From Actinomycetota bacterium (GTDB lineage Bacteria > Actinomycetota > Actinomycetes > S36-B12 > UBA5976): a DNA stretch of 26,739 bases. The DNA lies in NCBI GenBank assembly GCA_039800985.1, contig JBDLPR010000106.1:1-26739 (forward strand), given 5' to 3'. The position numbers and the translations under genes are program-made. The notes below the pieces were generated by a model that had not been told where the DNA came from, did no database searches, and was given only the letters and a program-made list of their open reading frames with translations. Shown in pieces: positions 15,030 to 22,603 of this stretch; the stretch's first letter is position 1, and each line of letters starts with the position of its first letter.

Positions 15030-16106
15030 TTACTGAGCTTTGCCAGCAATGAAATCTTCAACAAGGTTCTTACAAGTTGTGTCGTCATATTGAACCGGTG
15101 GGCTCTTCATGAAGTAACTTGAAGCCGAAAGAATTGGGCCACCAACACCACGATCTTTTGCAATCTTGCATGCGCGGATCGCGTCAATAATTACGCCAGC
15201 TGAGTTTGGTGAATCCCAAACTTCAAGCTTGTATTCAAGGTTTAGCGGAACGTCACCAAATGCACGACCTTCAAGACGAACGAATGCCCACTTGCGGTCA
15301 TCTAGCCATGCAACATAGTCAGATGGACCAATGTGAACGTTCTTGGCACCAAGGTCATGTTTTAGGTTTGAAGTAACAGCTTGAGTTTTTGAGATCTTCT
15401 TTGACTCAAGGCGATCGCGTTCAAGCATGTTCTTGAAGTCCATGTTTCCACCAACATTTAATTGGTAAGTACGATCTACGATCACACCGCGGTCTTCGAA
15501 TAGTTTTGCAAGTACGCGGTGGGTGATTGTCGCGCCAACTTGGCTTTTAATGTCATCACCAACAATAGGTACACCAGCTTTAGTGAACTTGTCTGCCCAT
15601 TCTTTTGTGCCAGCGATGAATACTGGAAGAGCGTTAACAAAGCCAACGCCAGCATCAATTGCACACTGTGCGTAGAACTTTGCTGCTTCTTCAGAGCCAA
15701 CTGGTAAGTAACAAACAAGAACGTCTACTTTTGCGTCCTTAAGTGCTTTGACCACATCAACTGGCTTATCGTCAGATTCGACAACCATTTCTTTGTAGTA
15801 CTTGCCAAGTCCATCAAGAGTGTGACCGCGTTGAACTGTCACACCTGTTGGTGGAACTTCTGAGAATTTAATTGTGTTGTTTTCGCTAGCAAAGATCGCA
15901 TGTGCTAGATCTTGGCCAACTTTCTTCCCGTCAACATCGAACGCGGCAACGAACTCAACGTCGCGCACGTGATATGGACCGAACTGTACGTGCATTAGGC
16001 CTGGTACTTGTGCATTTGGATCTGCATCTTTGTAGTACTCAACACCTTGTACAAGTGATGAAGCGCAGTTACCTACGCCAACTATTGCTACTCTTACTGA
16101 ACCCAC
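15030..16106 (-). CDS. ino1: myo-inositol-1-phosphate synthase
   Basis: [72 protein letters not shown]. Confidence 0.98.
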
Positions 16107-17357: not shown

Positions 17358-19538
17358 ATGAGTAAAGCCAAGCTGCCGAAATTTAATTTCAATTTCAAAC
17401 TTCCAACACGTAGACAATTTGCCACTGGTTTTATTGTAACTTCAGTTCTTGGCATTGTCTTTTTGTTTGCAGCTGTTCGCGCAGTTGAAGTGCCTGCGCC
17501 AAATGACGTGTCGCAAGCTCAAGCAACAATTCTTTATTACGACGATGGCACCACTGAGCTTGGTCGCTTAGGTGAAGCAAACCGCGTTTCGCTAAATCTT
17601 GCAGAGATTCCGGTCACCGTTCAAGAAGCCGTATTAGCTGCTGAAGATCGTGATTTCTACGATCATGGTGGTTTTTCTATTCGTGGTATTTCTCGCGCAT
17701 TATTTAATAACATCGTTGCGCGCATTAATCCATGGAACTCTGAAACTGGTTACGCCGGTGGTGGTTCAACAATTACTCAGCAGTATGCAAAAAATGCGTA
17801 CTTAACTCAAGAACAAACAATTAAACGTAAAGTTCGCGAAATTATTCTTTCGATCAAACTCGAAACAATGATCACCAAAGAAAAGATTCTTGAAAACTAC
17901 TTGAACACCAGTTTCTTTGGTCGCGGTGCCTATGGTGTTGAAACTGGTGCAAATGCATATTTTGGTAAGAGCGCCAAAGACATAACTATTGCTGAAGCTG
18001 CAGTTCTTGCATCAATTATTCAAGCGCCAAATGGCCTTGCACCAGAAAAGAATTTAGCTGGTTTAACAGAACGTTGGAATTACACACTTGATGGCATGGT
18101 TGAAAAAGGTTGGATAACACCTGAAGTTAGAGCTGTTCAAGTTTTCCCAACAATCATCGAACACAAGAATATGAATTCGTTCGCCGGACCAACCGGTCAC
18201 TTAGTTGAACAAACTCGTCAAGAACTTTATGGTCTTGGAATTACTGAAGATCAACTAAACCGTGCCGGTCTTCGCGTCACAACAACCTTTAATAAACAAG
18301 CTCAAGATGCAGCTTTATCTGCAGTCATAGAAGAGGGTCCAACTGAAGGTATCGAAGGATTGCGAATTGGCATGGCTGCCGTTCGTCCCGGTACTGGTGA
18401 AGTTGTTGCCATTTATGGCGGTGCTGATTACCTGCAAGACCAGTTCAATAATGCAACACAAGCAATTGGCCAGGCTGGTTCGACATTTAAACCGTTCACA
18501 TTGGCAGCAGCACTTGAAAACAATTTCTCGCTAGGCAGTGTCTTTAGCGGCATGAATAAGACCAAAGTTGATGGCTTTGAAGTTGTTAACTATGGCGATA
18601 ATTCTTATGGCGAGTGGATCACATTGCTGCTGGCAACCGAAAACTCAGTTAACTCCGCTTATGTTTCGCTGGCTTATCAAGTAGGCCTGGACAAGGTTTA
18701 TCAATCTGCCATTCGTGCTGGCATTCCAGAAACTGAAGTTGGCATGATGCCAAACCTTGCCTTCACCCTTGGAACCGCAAGTCCAAACGTTGTTGATATT
18801 GCAAACGGTTATTCAACGTTTGCTGCTCGTGGTCTGCAAACAGATTTGACTTACATAAAAAAAATTCAAGACAAAGCCGGCAACGTGATGTTTGAATACA
18901 AACCACAATCAGTTCAGGCATTCAGCACTGATGTAGCAGACACAGTTAGTTATGCATTAAAGAAAGTTGTTGAAGTCGGTACCGGTAAAGCTGCCTTGAG
19001 AGTTGGCCGTCCAGTTGCTGGTAAAACCGGTACAACTAATGACAATAAGTCAGCTTTATTCGCTGGTTACACACCACAACTAGCTGCAGCAATTATGTTC
19101 ACTAAAGATGGTCCTGACGGTCAGCCAATGACATTAAGTGGAACTGGTGGCATGCGAACTGTTACCGGTGGTTCTTACCCTGCACGTATCTGGACTGCAT
19201 TTATGAAGGGTGCACTCGATGGAGTTAAAGCAACCGGCTTTGGCGCCTTACCTACAGGTCAACCTGATGGCGCGAATCCAACAGGCACGCCAATCTATAC
19301 CGGAATCGATCCAGCACTAGTTGGACAACAAGTTACTGTTCCAAACCTGATCATGTCACTTGCTGATGCAAGAGCAACTGCTTTTGCAAGTGGAATTGGT
19401 TTAGTTGAAAGTATTGGCGCAGACGTTGATCAAAATGCAACGCTTTATGTAATTAACCAATCGATTCCAGCCGGAACAGTTGTCACTGGTGGAACGGCAG
19501 TTGGTGTGACGATTACAAATTCGCCACCGACGCCTTAA
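17358..19538 (+). CDS. ponA: Class A penicillin-binding protein (transglycosylase + transpeptidase) with a C-terminal PASTA-like segment
   Basis: GT51 motifs EDRDFYDHGG, GGSTITQQYAKN, RKVRE, KEKILENYLN; transpeptidase motifs STFK, SVN, KTG; N-terminal TM helix. Confidence 0.96.
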   Translation: MSKAKLPKFNFNFKLPTRRQFATGFIVTSVLGIVFLFAAVRAVEVPAPNDVSQAQATILYYDDGTTELGRLGEANRVSLNLAEIPVTVQEAVLAAEDRDFYDHGGFSIRGISRALFNNIVARINPWNSETGYAGGGSTITQQYAKNAYLTQEQTIKRKVREIILSIKLETMITKEKILENYLNTSFFGRGAYGVETGANAYFGKSAKDITIAEAAVLASIIQAPNGLAPEKNLAGLTERWNYTLDGMVEKGWITPEVRAVQVFPTIIEHKNMNSFAGPTGHLVEQTRQELYGLGITEDQLNRAGLRVTTTFNKQAQDAALSAVIEEGPTEGIEGLRIGMAAVRPGTGEVVAIYGGADYLQDQFNNATQAIGQAGSTFKPFTLAAALENNFSLGSVFSGMNKTKVDGFEVVNYGDNSYGEWITLLLATENSVNSAYVSLAYQVGLDKVYQSAIRAGIPETEVGMMPNLAFTLGTASPNVVDIANGYSTFAARGLQTDLTYIKKIQDKAGNVMFEYKPQSVQAFSTDVADTVSYALKKVVEVGTGKAALRVGRPVAGKTGTTNDNKSALFAGYTPQLAAAIMFTKDGPDGQPMTLSGTGGMRTVTGGSYPARIWTAFMKGALDGVKATGFGALPTGQPDGANPTGTPIYTGIDPALVGQQVTVPNLIMSLADARATAFASGIGLVESIGADVDQNATLYVINQSIPAGTVVTGGTAVGVTITNSPPTP

Positions 19539-20683
19539 CGGAAATTAATTACGTCAAAAGTTGCAGTGGTATTTCGCACTGTGCATTCAAGTTGGTCGCC
19601 AACATTCACTTTGCGATCTTCACACCAAAGTAACGAAACATGCATGTGTGGCGGCTCAGCAAACGGCAAATTCTTTTTGCCTAATTTAAAAGGCGACCTT
19701 ACTTTGCCAAGTGATTCTGAAATACCTTCAGAAAGGGCAATAGCCTTTGATCGAAGTGTGGTTCTAGAGGCAGGGGCAGCAAGTGCAACACCATGAGCGG
19801 TTCCACCACTAACTACAAGCAATCTGGCATGGCCGTGGCCATCAACTTGGCGGTAGCCAACATGTTCATGATCACCAGTTAATTCATGAATTTCTAGAAC
19901 TGTCCCAGTGACTTGTAGACATTTTTGGCTTCCTAGCCAAAGTGAAGTTCCAAGGCGAACTGAAACTTCAATATTTAAATTATTTTCACTAGCAAAATCA
20001 AGAATTTGTGAAACATCTTTTGTTGAAACATGAGAAAGATTTAATTTCAGTGGCCAGCCCATCTGGTTTACCCGAGGAGCAATTGAATTAATCCAAGATA
20101 AAATTTCATTTAGTCGTGGCGAAATCTTTTTGTTGTTTATCCGAGCTGAGTTATCGAAATATTTTTTATTTAAGTTTTCTGGTTCAACAATCGGCAAGTG
20201 AAGATTTAATCCAACAATTTGAATGTTGTGTTGATCGCCATTTATTAACCCAAGAATTTCATTTGGATTTGCACCAAAGCGATGAGTTGATGTCTTACCT
20301 TCAACAAGTGCAAATTTAATGCCAGCGCTTGCAGCCTGGGCAAAATGTGAACCAGCAATCACTGCAATAATTCGGTGCGCATTATTTTTTGTCGCATGTT
20401 GCCAAGCTTTAACTGTTGCCTGATCATTTGGGTTAAATGGCTCAAGAACAATAATTTCATTTCCAAAGTCAGTTAGTGCTTGATCAAGTTCAAAAACAGT
20501 GCCAACAGCAATTCGATTCACACCAAGTTTTGTTGATTCATGACTAAGTGTTCGGCGTGTAAATCCGTAGCCATTACCTTTAATTACTGGAATGACTTGG
20601 GCATCTACTTTCTTAAATTCATCGATTACTGAATTTATGTTTTTTTCAAACAATGCGCGGTCAACAGTTAATGCAAAAGTCAT
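19535..20683 (-). CDS. Alanine-racemase-fold (type III PLP) enzyme, substrate unknown
   Basis: VIPVIKGNGYGF (PLP lysine motif, cf. AVVKANAYGHG), VEGKTSTHRFG, GLNLHLP, VRLGTSLW, HVGYRQ, PPHMHVSLL. Confidence 0.85.
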   Translation of the reverse strand: MTFALTVDRALFEKNINSVIDEFKKVDAQVIPVIKGNGYGFTRRTLSHESTKLGVNRIAVGTVFELDQALTDFGNEIIVLEPFNPNDQATVKAWQHATKNNAHRIIAVIAGSHFAQAASAGIKFALVEGKTSTHRFGANPNEILGLINGDQHNIQIVGLNLHLPIVEPENLNKKYFDNSARINNKKISPRLNEILSWINSIAPRVNQMGWPLKLNLSHVSTKDVSQILDFASENNLNIEVSVRLGTSLWLGSQKCLQVTGTVLEIHELTGDHEHVGYRQVDGHGHARLLVVSGGTAHGVALAAPASRTTLRSKAIALSEGISESLGKVRSPFKLGKKNLPFAEPPHMHVSLLWCEDRKVNVGDQLECTVRNTTATFDVINFR

Positions 20684-20689
20684 AACTAA

Positions 20690-21808
20690 TTACCGCCTTG
20701 CCATGTAAAGCTTGAACGCTGTCGCCCAAGGTTTTGAGATTACAAAATCCCATTCACCAACATATTCTTGAGCATAACCACCAGTTCCAAGTTTGAATTG
20801 AATCAAACCAAATAAATGGTCGTTTTGATCCAATGTGTCGGAAATTCCACGCATGTCATAAATAGAACTGCCAGCAGCCAAACTATCTTTGATCATGGAC
20901 CATTGAATTGCATTGCTTGGACGCAAATCACGAGCAGCTGTCATTGAAGCGCCATATGAATACCAAGAATGATTTCCAACCCTGGTTAATGTGGTCGCAG
21001 CGATCGCACCTTCATAATCTGGATGCTCTGCGATAAATAACTTCATTCGCTTTGGATTTTCTTCGCGAAGTTGTGTCCACATTGTTTGGAAATAAGAAAG
21101 TGGTCTTGGCGTGAATTTGTCGCGCTTTGCTGTTTCCACGTAACACTTATGGAAAATCTCTAAATCTGCTTTAGTACCAACACGTACGGTAACGCCGGAT
21201 TTTTCAGCTTTTTTAATGTTTCTACGCCAAAGCTGGTTAAAGCTATCTGAGACTTTTTCTTCAGTTTTATTCTTTAAATTAATTTGAAATACATAACGAG
21301 GTTGGTAGTCACCAAAGCCAGCCGCTTCAGCTTTTGGTTGATGCCAACCAAGCTTTTCTAGCTGAGTAGCCAGATTCAAACCAACTTTATTTGTTTCATC
21401 TGGAGTTAACTGACCAATTCGTTTTGCTGATTCATTTGCAATCGCATCTTTTAAAGTTTCAGCTTTCCAACGACGTATCCAAGTGTGTGGGCCAATTTTG
21501 ATTTGGAAAACACCAATCGGTTTTAAGTAATTAACTAATGCAGTAAGCGCATCTGGAACTTGATTCGAAGACCAATCAATATCTGGACCTTCAGGTAAGT
21601 AAGCAAGGTATTTATTTACTTTTGGAACTTTACGCAATAAAACTAATCCGGCACCGATCAGTTGATCGTCATCAAACCATCCAAGTGATTTTGATATCCA
21701 TCCTGATTTTGTTTTACCCCATGCTGGAGTTTGTAAAAAGGAAACTGAGTTTTGTGCATCAATATATTTAAGATGTTCATCAGAACTTATTTCTTTTACA
21801 AGTATCAC
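20690..21808 (-). CDS. femX: FemAB/FemX-family aminoacyl-tRNA-dependent peptidoglycan bridge transferase
   Basis: SFLQTPAWG, YLPEGP, QPRYVF, WRRNIKKAEKSGV, ETAKRDKF, WYSYGAS, RPSNAIQW, YDMRGI, QFKLGTGG, YVGEWD. Confidence 0.92.
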   Translation of the reverse strand: MILVKEISSDEHLKYIDAQNSVSFLQTPAWGKTKSGWISKSLGWFDDDQLIGAGLVLLRKVPKVNKYLAYLPEGPDIDWSSNQVPDALTALVNYLKPIGVFQIKIGPHTWIRRWKAETLKDAIANESAKRIGQLTPDETNKVGLNLATQLEKLGWHQPKAEAAGFGDYQPRYVFQINLKNKTEEKVSDSFNQLWRRNIKKAEKSGVTVRVGTKADLEIFHKCYVETAKRDKFTPRPLSYFQTMWTQLREENPKRMKLFIAEHPDYEGAIAATTLTRVGNHSWYSYGASMTAARDLRPSNAIQWSMIKDSLAAGSSIYDMRGISDTLDQNDHLFGLIQFKLGTGGYAQEYVGEWDFVISKPWATAFKLYMARR

Positions 21809-21820
21809 TAAATATCACAA

Positions 21821-22603
21821 CTACTTAAGCGCATCACGCAAAATTTTTAGATCAGTTTCTATGTCATCAAAAGGCGTTTCAAGCACTATTGGTGCATTGG
21901 CAACTTTGAGATTACGAATCAAAACATCTAAATCCATAGTTCCCGAATTGAGATTTGCATGGCGATCAGCACCAGAATCAAATGCATCTCGGCTGTTATT
22001 GCAATGAACTAAATCTATTCGACCTGTTGTATTTAAAATTGTTTCGGATAAGTTTTCTTGAGCGATGCCACCTGCGTGTGCATGACAAGTGTCTAAACAA
22101 AATCCAACCCCGGTAGTGCCAACTGCATCCCAAAGCCTGGCAATAGATTCAAGTTTGCGCGCCATTGAAAATTTTCCGCCAGCAGTATTTTCGATATAAA
22201 CCGGAACTTTCATATCTAATTGATCAATAGCTTTAACCCAATTTGCTACACCAACTTTTGGATCATCATCCGCGGTGACATGACCACCGTGCACAATCAC
22301 CGCTTTAGCACCGATCGAAGCAGCAGCATCGACGTCAGCTTGGAGTAACTTGCGACTTGGGATTCGCACTTTGTTATTTGTCGTCGCAACATTAATCACG
22401 TATCTGGCATGTACGTAAATATCGATTTTGGCAGCTTTGGCCGATTTCTTTAGACCCTCAGCGCCATCAGCATGTGGAATCTCGGTGCCTTTCCAGCCCT
22501 GGGGATCGGCGACGAAAATCTGAATCAGATCAAGGCCCAGCGATTTGGCTGTTTCAATGGGGTTTTCGCCACTTACATGGGAGCCAATAGCCAGTTTTGC
22601 CAT
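21821..22603 (-). CDS. nfo: Endonuclease IV (AP endonuclease 2 family)
   Basis: All nine metal ligands are recognisable: YVHA, VHGG, IENTAG, LDTCH (two), VHCN, DRH (two), LETP; also IGSHV and QIF. Confidence 0.92.
   Translation of the reverse strand: MAKLAIGSHVSGENPIETAKSLGLDLIQIFVADPQGWKGTEIPHADGAEGLKKSAKAAKIDIYVHARYVINVATTNNKVRIPSRKLLQADVDAAASIGAKAVIVHGGHVTADDDPKVGVANWVKAIDQLDMKVPVYIENTAGGKFSMARKLESIARLWDAVGTTGVGFCLDTCHAHAGGIAQENLSETILNTTGRIDLVHCNNSRDAFDSGADRHANLNSGTMDLDVLIRNLKVANAPIVLETPFDDIETDLKILRDALK

Follow-up and report, generated by a model that had tools for sequence, protein, structure and literature searches.

A femX-linked paralogue of alanine racemase associated with LL-diaminopimelate-glycine cell walls and its candidate role as a precursor epimerase

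The window analysed here, i.e., the whole 26,739-nucleotide contig (C106) of a 1.0-Mb actinomycete metagenome-assembled genome (MAG; 66% complete, about 44% G+C), contains a gene directly downstream of femX for a pyridoxal 5'-phosphate (PLP)-dependent enzyme, designated P0001, that is a paralogue of alanine racemase (Alr). This paralogue retained the catalytic residues of Alr, had a remodelled substrate entryway, was linked to femX, was present or absent together with femX and was associated with taxa that have LL-diaminopimelic acid (LL-DAP) and glycine in the cell wall. It is very probably an enzyme of the racemase type, coupled to FemX and distinct from the housekeeping one, with a part in the synthesis of LL-DAP-Gly walls. 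The more specific reading that we prefer, with a probability of about 0.35–0.4, is that it acts as a PLP-dependent epimerase on the distal centre of DAP within a cytoplasmic peptidoglycan precursor, the L form of which would be trapped by FemX.

Results

Linkage of the racemase gene to femX in Actinomycetes

Actinomycete loci with relatives of P0001 were collected by scanning one genome of each species with sequence patterns, which gave 80 loci. Upstream of the racemase gene, femX was present on the same strand in all 77 loci with room for it (the other three had no room upstream), the distance from match to match was less than 150 nucleotides in 72 of these, and the pair was kept even where the rpsF and penicillin-binding protein (PBP) neighbours were not. 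In a phylum-wide sample of 401 genomes, FemAB was present in each of the 15 genomes with a strong racemase match, and among close relatives the racemase was found in 23 of 26. Members of the Terrabacter family carried the racemase in 26 of 121 genomes, with FemAB adjoining in every case (26/26). Three more genomes of this family had FemX of the same type; the racemase was cut by the contig end in one, the contig ended at femX in another, and the third (G536) was truly without the racemase. In G536, the FemX orthologue (L375:1508-3713, 305 bits to the window FemX) was followed by an open reading frame (ORF) resembling a zinc metallopeptidase (HEYGHH). This genome may be a natural FemX-only case, the wall chemistry of which would be informative.

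Joint absence was also noted. Thus, two near-complete genomes from the same order (G416 and G419) lacked both the racemase and FemAB, and in two pair-negative genomes, G416 and a member of another family (G069), the region from rplI-ssb-rpsF to PBP1A and three further genes were kept while the pair site was empty. As a side observation, the region was conserved and the pair within it behaved like an insertion or deletion (L379, L380 and L381; genomes G416, G069 and G419), and G419 contained a weak (33%) femX-like stretch at this site, possibly a remnant. Reading frames of 733–828 amino acids in several high-GC genomes, considered as FemX-racemase fusions, were rejected on finding that they held Pfam racemase domains only and that femX lay in another frame. 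Some MAG records with close relatives of the locus (L025, L043, L054 and L061) were titled Bifidobacterium or Bifidobacteriaceae; these labels are probably wrong, as synteny and sequence fit a freshwater actinomycete group.

Distribution of the pair beyond Actinomycetes and origin of the clade

In another actinobacterial class, MAG families had FemAB followed by an Alr paralogue that scored 243–289 bits on the alr model, over positions 3–287 only, and a full-length alr was also present elsewhere in these genomes. A search with the other-class paralogue and general Alr motifs, which returned mostly canonical Alr of many phyla, revealed the same arrangement in Paradesulfitobacterium, two Bacillota MAGs and one Armatimonadota MAG (L125, L126, L136 and L171). 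Among Firmicute femX loci, 76 of 80 had an Alr paralogue directly downstream of femX; these loci included Desulfosporosinus, Desulfitobacterium, Dehalobacter, Gracilibacter and Syntrophomonadaceae (Desulfitobacteriia and others), and all five of the Firmicute genomes checked had a normal alr as well. The pair in Desulfitobacteriia was flanked by pyrG (CTP synthase) upstream and a single-domain response regulator downstream (L225 of Desulfosporosinus, L268 of Dehalobacter), and comparison of actinomycete with Firmicute loci revealed no third gene conserved with the pair across phyla. Recurring as it did in every actinomycete locus with room upstream and again in other phyla, the pairing of femX with the racemase was far beyond chance.

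In the tree, all femX-linked forms grouped together in a single clade (support 100/100), separate from the canonical Alr of actinobacteria. The actinomycete family was set off by a very long branch, of 2.93 changes per site, for which reason the available family models barely detect it. While the tree alone is open to long-branch attraction, an insertion and a deletion shared by the femX-linked forms (see below) provided independent support. These femX-linked Alr paralogues are an old clade, found in at least three phyla besides the normal alr, and P0001 agrees with the other members in being encoded on the same strand directly after FemAB and in having the insertion, the MQ or MH replacement and the deletion of the Tyr354 segment.

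A short sister form was noted in Ilumatobacteraceae (L023:5356-9409, L118:2193-6181 and L117). It contained GNGYG, GTAHG, SPF and EPPHMH, was without the entryway insertion, and was encoded within a conserved trio between genes for a GT2 glycosyltransferase and a DUF418/Acyl_transf_3 membrane acyltransferase. FemAB was not found in four of five Ilumatobacteraceae-type genomes searched.

Association with LL-DAP-Gly walls

Actinomycete hosts of the pair included Streptacidiphilus, Kitasatospora, Peterkaempfera, Nocardioides, Aeromicrobium, Mumia and Marmoricola, as well as Tessaracoccus, Arachnia, Jiangellaceae, Sporichthyaceae, Terrabacter, Terracoccus, Humibacillus, Intrasporangium and Lapillicoccus. 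The LL isomer of DAP (LL-A2pm) is described for Streptomycetaceae, for Nocardioidaceae (with glycine), for Sporichthya and for Intrasporangium (A3-gamma) (PMC6113628). Janibacter, Knoellia, Tetrasphaera and Ornithinimicrobium were all missing among the 79 relatives nearest to the Terrabacter protein, where the farther Nocardioidaceae were present, an absence that is suggestive, though not proof that the gene is absent from these genera. The walls of these four genera are of the meso-DAP or ornithine type, and the actinomycete hosts beyond those covered by the description above are LL-DAP taxa. Walls of the A3-gamma type also occur in Desulfitobacterium, Desulfosporosinus and Dehalobacter. Consistent with this, a Fem gene (vanK) within the van cluster has been noted only in Streptomyces coelicolor, Desulfitobacterium and Desulfosporosinus (PMC4229326). 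The first-pass annotation of the window had paired the racemase with femX and proposed a relation of the pair to peptidoglycan chemotype; the bond to femX and an association with LL-DAP-Gly taxa were supported by the actinomycete loci, by the Terrabacter family and by the named hosts. As the racemase was never apart from femX, chemotype tracking alone cannot separate the roles of the two genes.

Catalytic residues, fold and substrate side

Conservation of individual residues was determined from an alignment (A1) of 59 diverse relatives. The motifs of P0001 were IKGNGYG at residues 33–39 (with K35), VGYRQ at 275–279 (with Y277) and PPHMHVS at 344–350. Residues K35, Y39, R135, H162, S217, H218 and R243 were invariant among the relatives, Y277 and E128 were at least 90% conserved, and K35 and Y277 aligned with the columns of the PLP lysine and the second-base tyrosine of Alr. 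We take Y39, R135, H162, R243 and Y277 to be the equivalents of Tyr43, Arg136, His166, Arg219 and Tyr265 of Geobacillus stearothermophilus Alr, S217 to be the phosphate serine and K35 the PLP lysine; E128 is presumably at the position of the carbamylated Lys129 of Alr, with a carboxylate replacing the carbamate. Alignments further indicated that the carboxylate-binding Arg and the equivalent of Met312 are retained in the family of P0001.

The AlphaFold (AF2) model of P0001 had a predicted local distance difference test (pLDDT) score of 93.9, and the 50 best matches to it in the PDB, identified with Foldseek, were all alanine, serine, lysine or broad-spectrum racemases (E down to 4e-15). Sequence searches of the PDB found Alr-type racemases with a profile E of about 3e-14 as compared with an E of 0.2 from the single sequence. 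With an N-terminal PF01168 barrel that carries the PLP lysine and an Alr-like two-domain fold, P0001 belongs to fold-type III. Judged from these features, it looks like a catalytically competent PLP racemase/epimerase of the two-base (Lys/Tyr) Alr type. That the protein might instead be a pseudoenzyme, i.e., a non-catalytic partner or regulator of FemX, is a reading for which the very long branch of the actinomycete family speaks, yet it is barely credible when the PLP lysine, the tyrosine base and the ligands of the phosphate and the pyridine nitrogen are invariant or nearly so in 59 diverse members and when FemX-racemase fusions do not exist.

The substrate side was changed at three sites in all femX-linked paralogues. 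Directly after the equivalent of the GYADG motif (GGTAHG in the window) there was an insertion of 24–28 residues, at about 299–326 of P0001; HMH or HMQ replaced the CMD of Alr (HMH in the window, as part of EPPHMH at 343–348, and HMQ in most relatives); and about 26 residues that hold the TINYE tyrosine in Alr were deleted, P0001 having a C-terminus shortened in comparison with Alr. In terms of Alr structures, the insertion is presumably located in the entryway loop that the partner monomer contributes with Arg290, the change of CMD presumably affects Asp313 beside Met312, and the deleted segment is taken to be that of Tyr354, which closes the small side-chain pocket. Since these sites line the entryway and the side-chain pocket, a larger or different substrate is indicated. 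The first-pass annotation, which had noted retention of the catalytic Lys and Tyr with altered motifs on the substrate side, was upheld here by the 59-member alignment and by alignments with Alr. No signal or membrane segment was seen in the N-terminal sequence of P0001, which places the protein in the cytoplasm.

Relation to the housekeeping alanine racemase

P0001 matched the N-domain model PF01168 only (34.8 bits), gave no match to the C-domain model PF00842 and scored 19.3 bits on TIGR00492, the alr equivalog, against a cut-off of 168. The separate canonical alr for which the first-pass annotation had proposed to look was located on contig C76 of the same genome; it scored 338.8 bits on TIGR00492 and was in the standard arrangement glmS-acpS-alr-tsaE-tsaB-rimI. 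BLASTP of P0001 against this Alr gave no significant match, and the kinship of the two was visible by profiles and fold only. Every pair-bearing genome checked contained one full-length alr plus the paralogue. P0001 is other than the housekeeping Alr; in evolutionary terms, it is an Alr duplicate, namely a very divergent member of the old clade of Alr paralogues. The earlier statement that it is "not an Alr duplicate" therefore stands in the first sense and fails in the second.

These results also bear on whether P0001 is a plain second alanine racemase, co-expressed with a wall gene for additional D-Ala. Such an isozyme would retain all catalytic residues, as was observed, and the Firmicute and other-class forms scored 224–289 bits on TIGR00492, above the cut-off. 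This reading is improbable in view of the score of the window protein on the same model, about 19 bits, and because the entryway insertion, the change of Asp to Gln or His and the loss of the Tyr354 segment would not be expected if specificity were unchanged; moreover, the gene was found only where femX of the LL-DAP type was found. A null mutant of S. coelicolor alr (SCO4745) depended on D-Ala, and this Alr was described by the authors as the only one (10.1101/089938). Given that Streptomyces-type genomes hold an orthologue of P0001 beside femX, the orthologue presumably gives no D-Ala, at least at native expression.

Candidate substrate and mechanism

For inversion at an Alr-type site, the alpha-amine and the alpha-carboxylate of the carbon concerned must both be free. 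Within the stem peptide, the distal centre of DAP is the only such centre and is also the sole difference between meso- and LL-DAP walls; the amine of this distal DAP centre is acylated by FemX. Epimerisation of the peptide-linked distal centre would be a clean interconversion of meso- and LL-DAP, whereas free meso-DAP would also give DD-DAP. The DNPR motif of MurE was kept in pair-positive and pair-negative genomes alike. Recognition residues of MurE are likewise reported to be the same in LL- and meso-DAP bacteria, which leaves the choice of isomer unexplained (Kitasatospora genome paper, PMC2993542). DapF was present in 13 of 13 near-complete relatives, a finding that would make an epimerase of free DAP redundant and that excluded the racemase as a replacement for DapF; P0001 itself gave no match to PF01678 (DapF). 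The needs of the Alr site, the position acylated by FemX, the sameness of MurE, the presence of DapF and the DD-DAP side product together favour a peptidoglycan precursor as the substrate.

According to the mechanism proposed, the racemase would bind the free distal DAP centre of a cytoplasmic precursor, i.e., UDP-N-acetylmuramoyl (UDP-MurNAc)-tripeptide or -pentapeptide or lipid II, and would interconvert the distal D centre of meso-DAP and the L centre of LL-DAP. FemX would then add glycine from Gly-tRNA to the amine of the L centre, which would remove the free amine and pull the equilibrium. Acting together, the two gene products would convert a precursor of the A1-gamma type to the A3-gamma (LL-DAP-Gly) type with MurE unchanged. 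Both the substrate and the order of these steps are drawn from context. Extended to A3-gamma walls in general, the tentative proposal would be that LL-DAP arises after incorporation and not by the choice of MurE, and that the epimerase and FemX form a portable chemotype switch.

Another possibility is that the enzyme has free amino acids as its substrate, either one that is not alanine or a broad range (free DAP, Lys, Orn or Ser), and so supplies or removes a D-amino acid for the LL-DAP-Gly wall. Lysine, serine and broad-spectrum racemases are indeed among the nearest solved folds, the Arg that binds the carboxylate and the backbone position of Met are retained, and loss of the Tyr354 segment is the type of change that widens the specificity of Alr (as in VanT and Y354 mutants). 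We nevertheless consider this rather unlikely, as A3-gamma walls have no known D-amino acid beyond D-Ala and D-Glu, DapF is already present, free meso-DAP would be converted in part to DD-DAP, and the strict adjacency to femX across phyla would be left unexplained.

Action on the donor side of FemX or on its product, by proofreading of aminoacyl-tRNA or by epimerising an L-residue added in error at the N-terminus of the branch, would account for the tight coupling to femX, and the branch N-terminus does have a free amine. The branch residue is presumably glycine, however, which is achiral, the retained Arg/Met site fits a free alpha-carboxylate, which neither an aminoacyl ester nor a residue at the branch N-terminus has, and no precedent is known to us, so that action of this kind is very improbable. 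The first-pass annotation had mentioned epimerisation of a Fem-added residue as an option, which the achirality of the added glycine makes unlikely. Epimerisation of the distal DAP centre remains the reading that we prefer.

The locus and its neighbouring genes

Coordinates of the pair and of the adjacent genes are listed in Table 1. The four bases on the plus strand at 19535–19538 were T-T-A-A, the PBP gene ending with TAA at 19536–19538 and the complement of 19535–19537 being the stop codon of the racemase gene. The spacer separated the stop codon of femX from the ATG of the racemase gene, and 12 bases separated the stop codon of nfo from the GTG of femX. A ribosome-binding stretch of the AAGGCGG type was located within the 3' end of femX, ahead of the racemase start, and no terminator-like site was found on the minus strand within the nfo-femX-racemase unit. 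Based on this arrangement, femX and the racemase gene are likely co-transcribed, and nfo is probably co-transcribed with femX at this locus. The 6-bp gap, the TTAA shared with the convergent PBP gene and the motifs quoted in the first-pass annotation were all confirmed from the sequence.

Table 1. Genes and spacer at the femX-racemase locus (positions in the window).
Feature	Position	Strand	Description
Class A PBP	17358-19538	+	ORF; PBP1A type; Transgly, Transpeptidase and PASTA domains
FemX-linked alanine racemase paralogue (P0001), 382 amino acids	19535-20683	-	ORF; fold-type III PLP enzyme
Spacer, 6 bp, femX stop to racemase start	20684-20689	-	Sequence ttagtt
femX (P0002), 372 amino acids	20690-21808	-	Predicted FemAB-family aminoacyl-tRNA-dependent branch transferase; PF02388
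nfo, deoxyribonuclease IV	21821-22603	-	NF002198, 360.6 bits

P0002, the product of femX, scored 186.6 bits on the FemAB model PF02388 and was 50–54% identical to the products of rpsF-adjacent femX in Streptacidiphilus and Kitasatospora loci (Streptomycetaceae). Upstream (5') of femX, nfo was present in a minority of related actinomycete loci and was absent from Firmicute loci. Thus, of the unit first described, nfo-femX-racemase converging on a PBP gene, the arrangement was correct for the window, but neither nfo as a member of the module nor convergence on the PBP gene is conserved, and flanking genes outside Actinomycetes were entirely different. The PBP gene is a syntenic neighbour outside the module, since synteny of PBP with rpsF was also noted in genomes without femX and the racemase.

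Elsewhere in the window, an ORF of 358 amino acids (15030-16106, minus strand) was shared at 78–94% identity by actinomycetes very distant from one another, Streptomyces-type genomes among them, a degree of conservation far above that of neighbouring genes.

Discussion

Of the systems with which the pair may be compared, Alr/DadX (EC 5.1.1.1; PF01168 plus PF00842; TIGR00492) is the closest. P0001 has the same fold-type III structure, finds its nearest solved folds and sequences there, and descends from this family by duplication, keeping the PLP lysine, the Tyr base and the equivalents of Arg136, His166, Arg219 and Met312. It differs by the insertion, by His/Gln in place of the Asp313 equivalent, by the Tyr354 deletion, by E128 and by the lack of a PF00842 match. 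The Alr fold is also that of BsrV/Alr broad-spectrum racemases of Vibrio and Pseudomonas and of lysine racemase (PDB 4beu, 4dza), which have a widened entryway for long side chains; BsrV is reported to bind muropeptides (PMC7890096). These enzymes are periplasmic, act on free amino acids, have no link to femX and are without the insertion and deletion of P0001 (profile E of 1e-8 to 1e-10). Should the DAP reading hold, DapF (PF01678) would catalyse the same inversion (LL to meso), but it works on free DAP, needs no PLP and is unrelated in fold.

The Aslfm-Racfm operon of Enterococcus faecium likewise pairs an enzyme for the branch at stem position 3 with a racemase. Bellais et al. reportedly described, in 2006, the D-aspartate ligase Aslfm and the aspartate racemase Racfm of this organism as acting for a D-Asp cross-bridge. 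There, a PLP-independent racemase makes a free D-amino acid for an ATP-grasp ligase, whereas the transferase in the window is a predicted tRNA-dependent Fem enzyme, presumably for glycine. Because glycine is achiral, the racemase in the window, unlike Racfm, cannot be making the donor. A search of the literature found no description of the racemase protein or of the femX-racemase pairing, in agreement with the earlier remark that no biochemical assignment of such an enzyme was known. P0001 belongs to the Alr family, its substrate is probably new and its genomic partner is defined.

Several observations weigh against epimerisation of a precursor as the role of this enzyme. LL-DAP is a normal, freely available intermediate of the lysine pathway. 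The MurE of Escherichia coli can use LL-DAP (Mengin-Lecreulx 1988, as relayed in PMC2993542), and with LL-DAP both available and usable by MurE, an extra epimerase is not strictly required. The pairing itself was broken in places: the FemX-bearing Terrabacter-family genome G536 had no racemase after femX or elsewhere in the genome, three Gracilibacteraceae MAG femX loci were without a racemase downstream, and the short relative in Ilumatobacteraceae had no adjoining FemAB. Less diverged forms, in Firmicutes and the other actinobacterial class, pass the alr cut-off at 224–289 bits and could be plain alanine racemases. The proposed substrate is assigned from context only.

How the LL isomer is chosen in LL-DAP-Gly walls, i.e., those of Streptomyces, Nocardioides, Cutibacterium-type propionibacteria, Desulfitobacterium and Dehalobacter, has long been an open question, for which a FemX-bound PLP racemase is a concrete and directly testable candidate. 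If it is a precursor epimerase, peptidoglycan synthesis would gain a new enzymatic step, and no earlier PLP-dependent enzyme that epimerises a peptidoglycan intermediate is known to us. The cassette would then account for the scattered distribution of LL-DAP-Gly walls among Actinomycetota, Bacillota and Armatimonadota, and perhaps for the alternation of meso- and LL-DAP in Kitasatospora; it would serve as a genomic marker by which chemotype could be predicted for MAGs, and might offer a new target in pathogens with LL-DAP and in actinomycetes of industrial use. Even a free amino acid as the substrate would mean that hundreds of annotations as alanine racemase need to be corrected.

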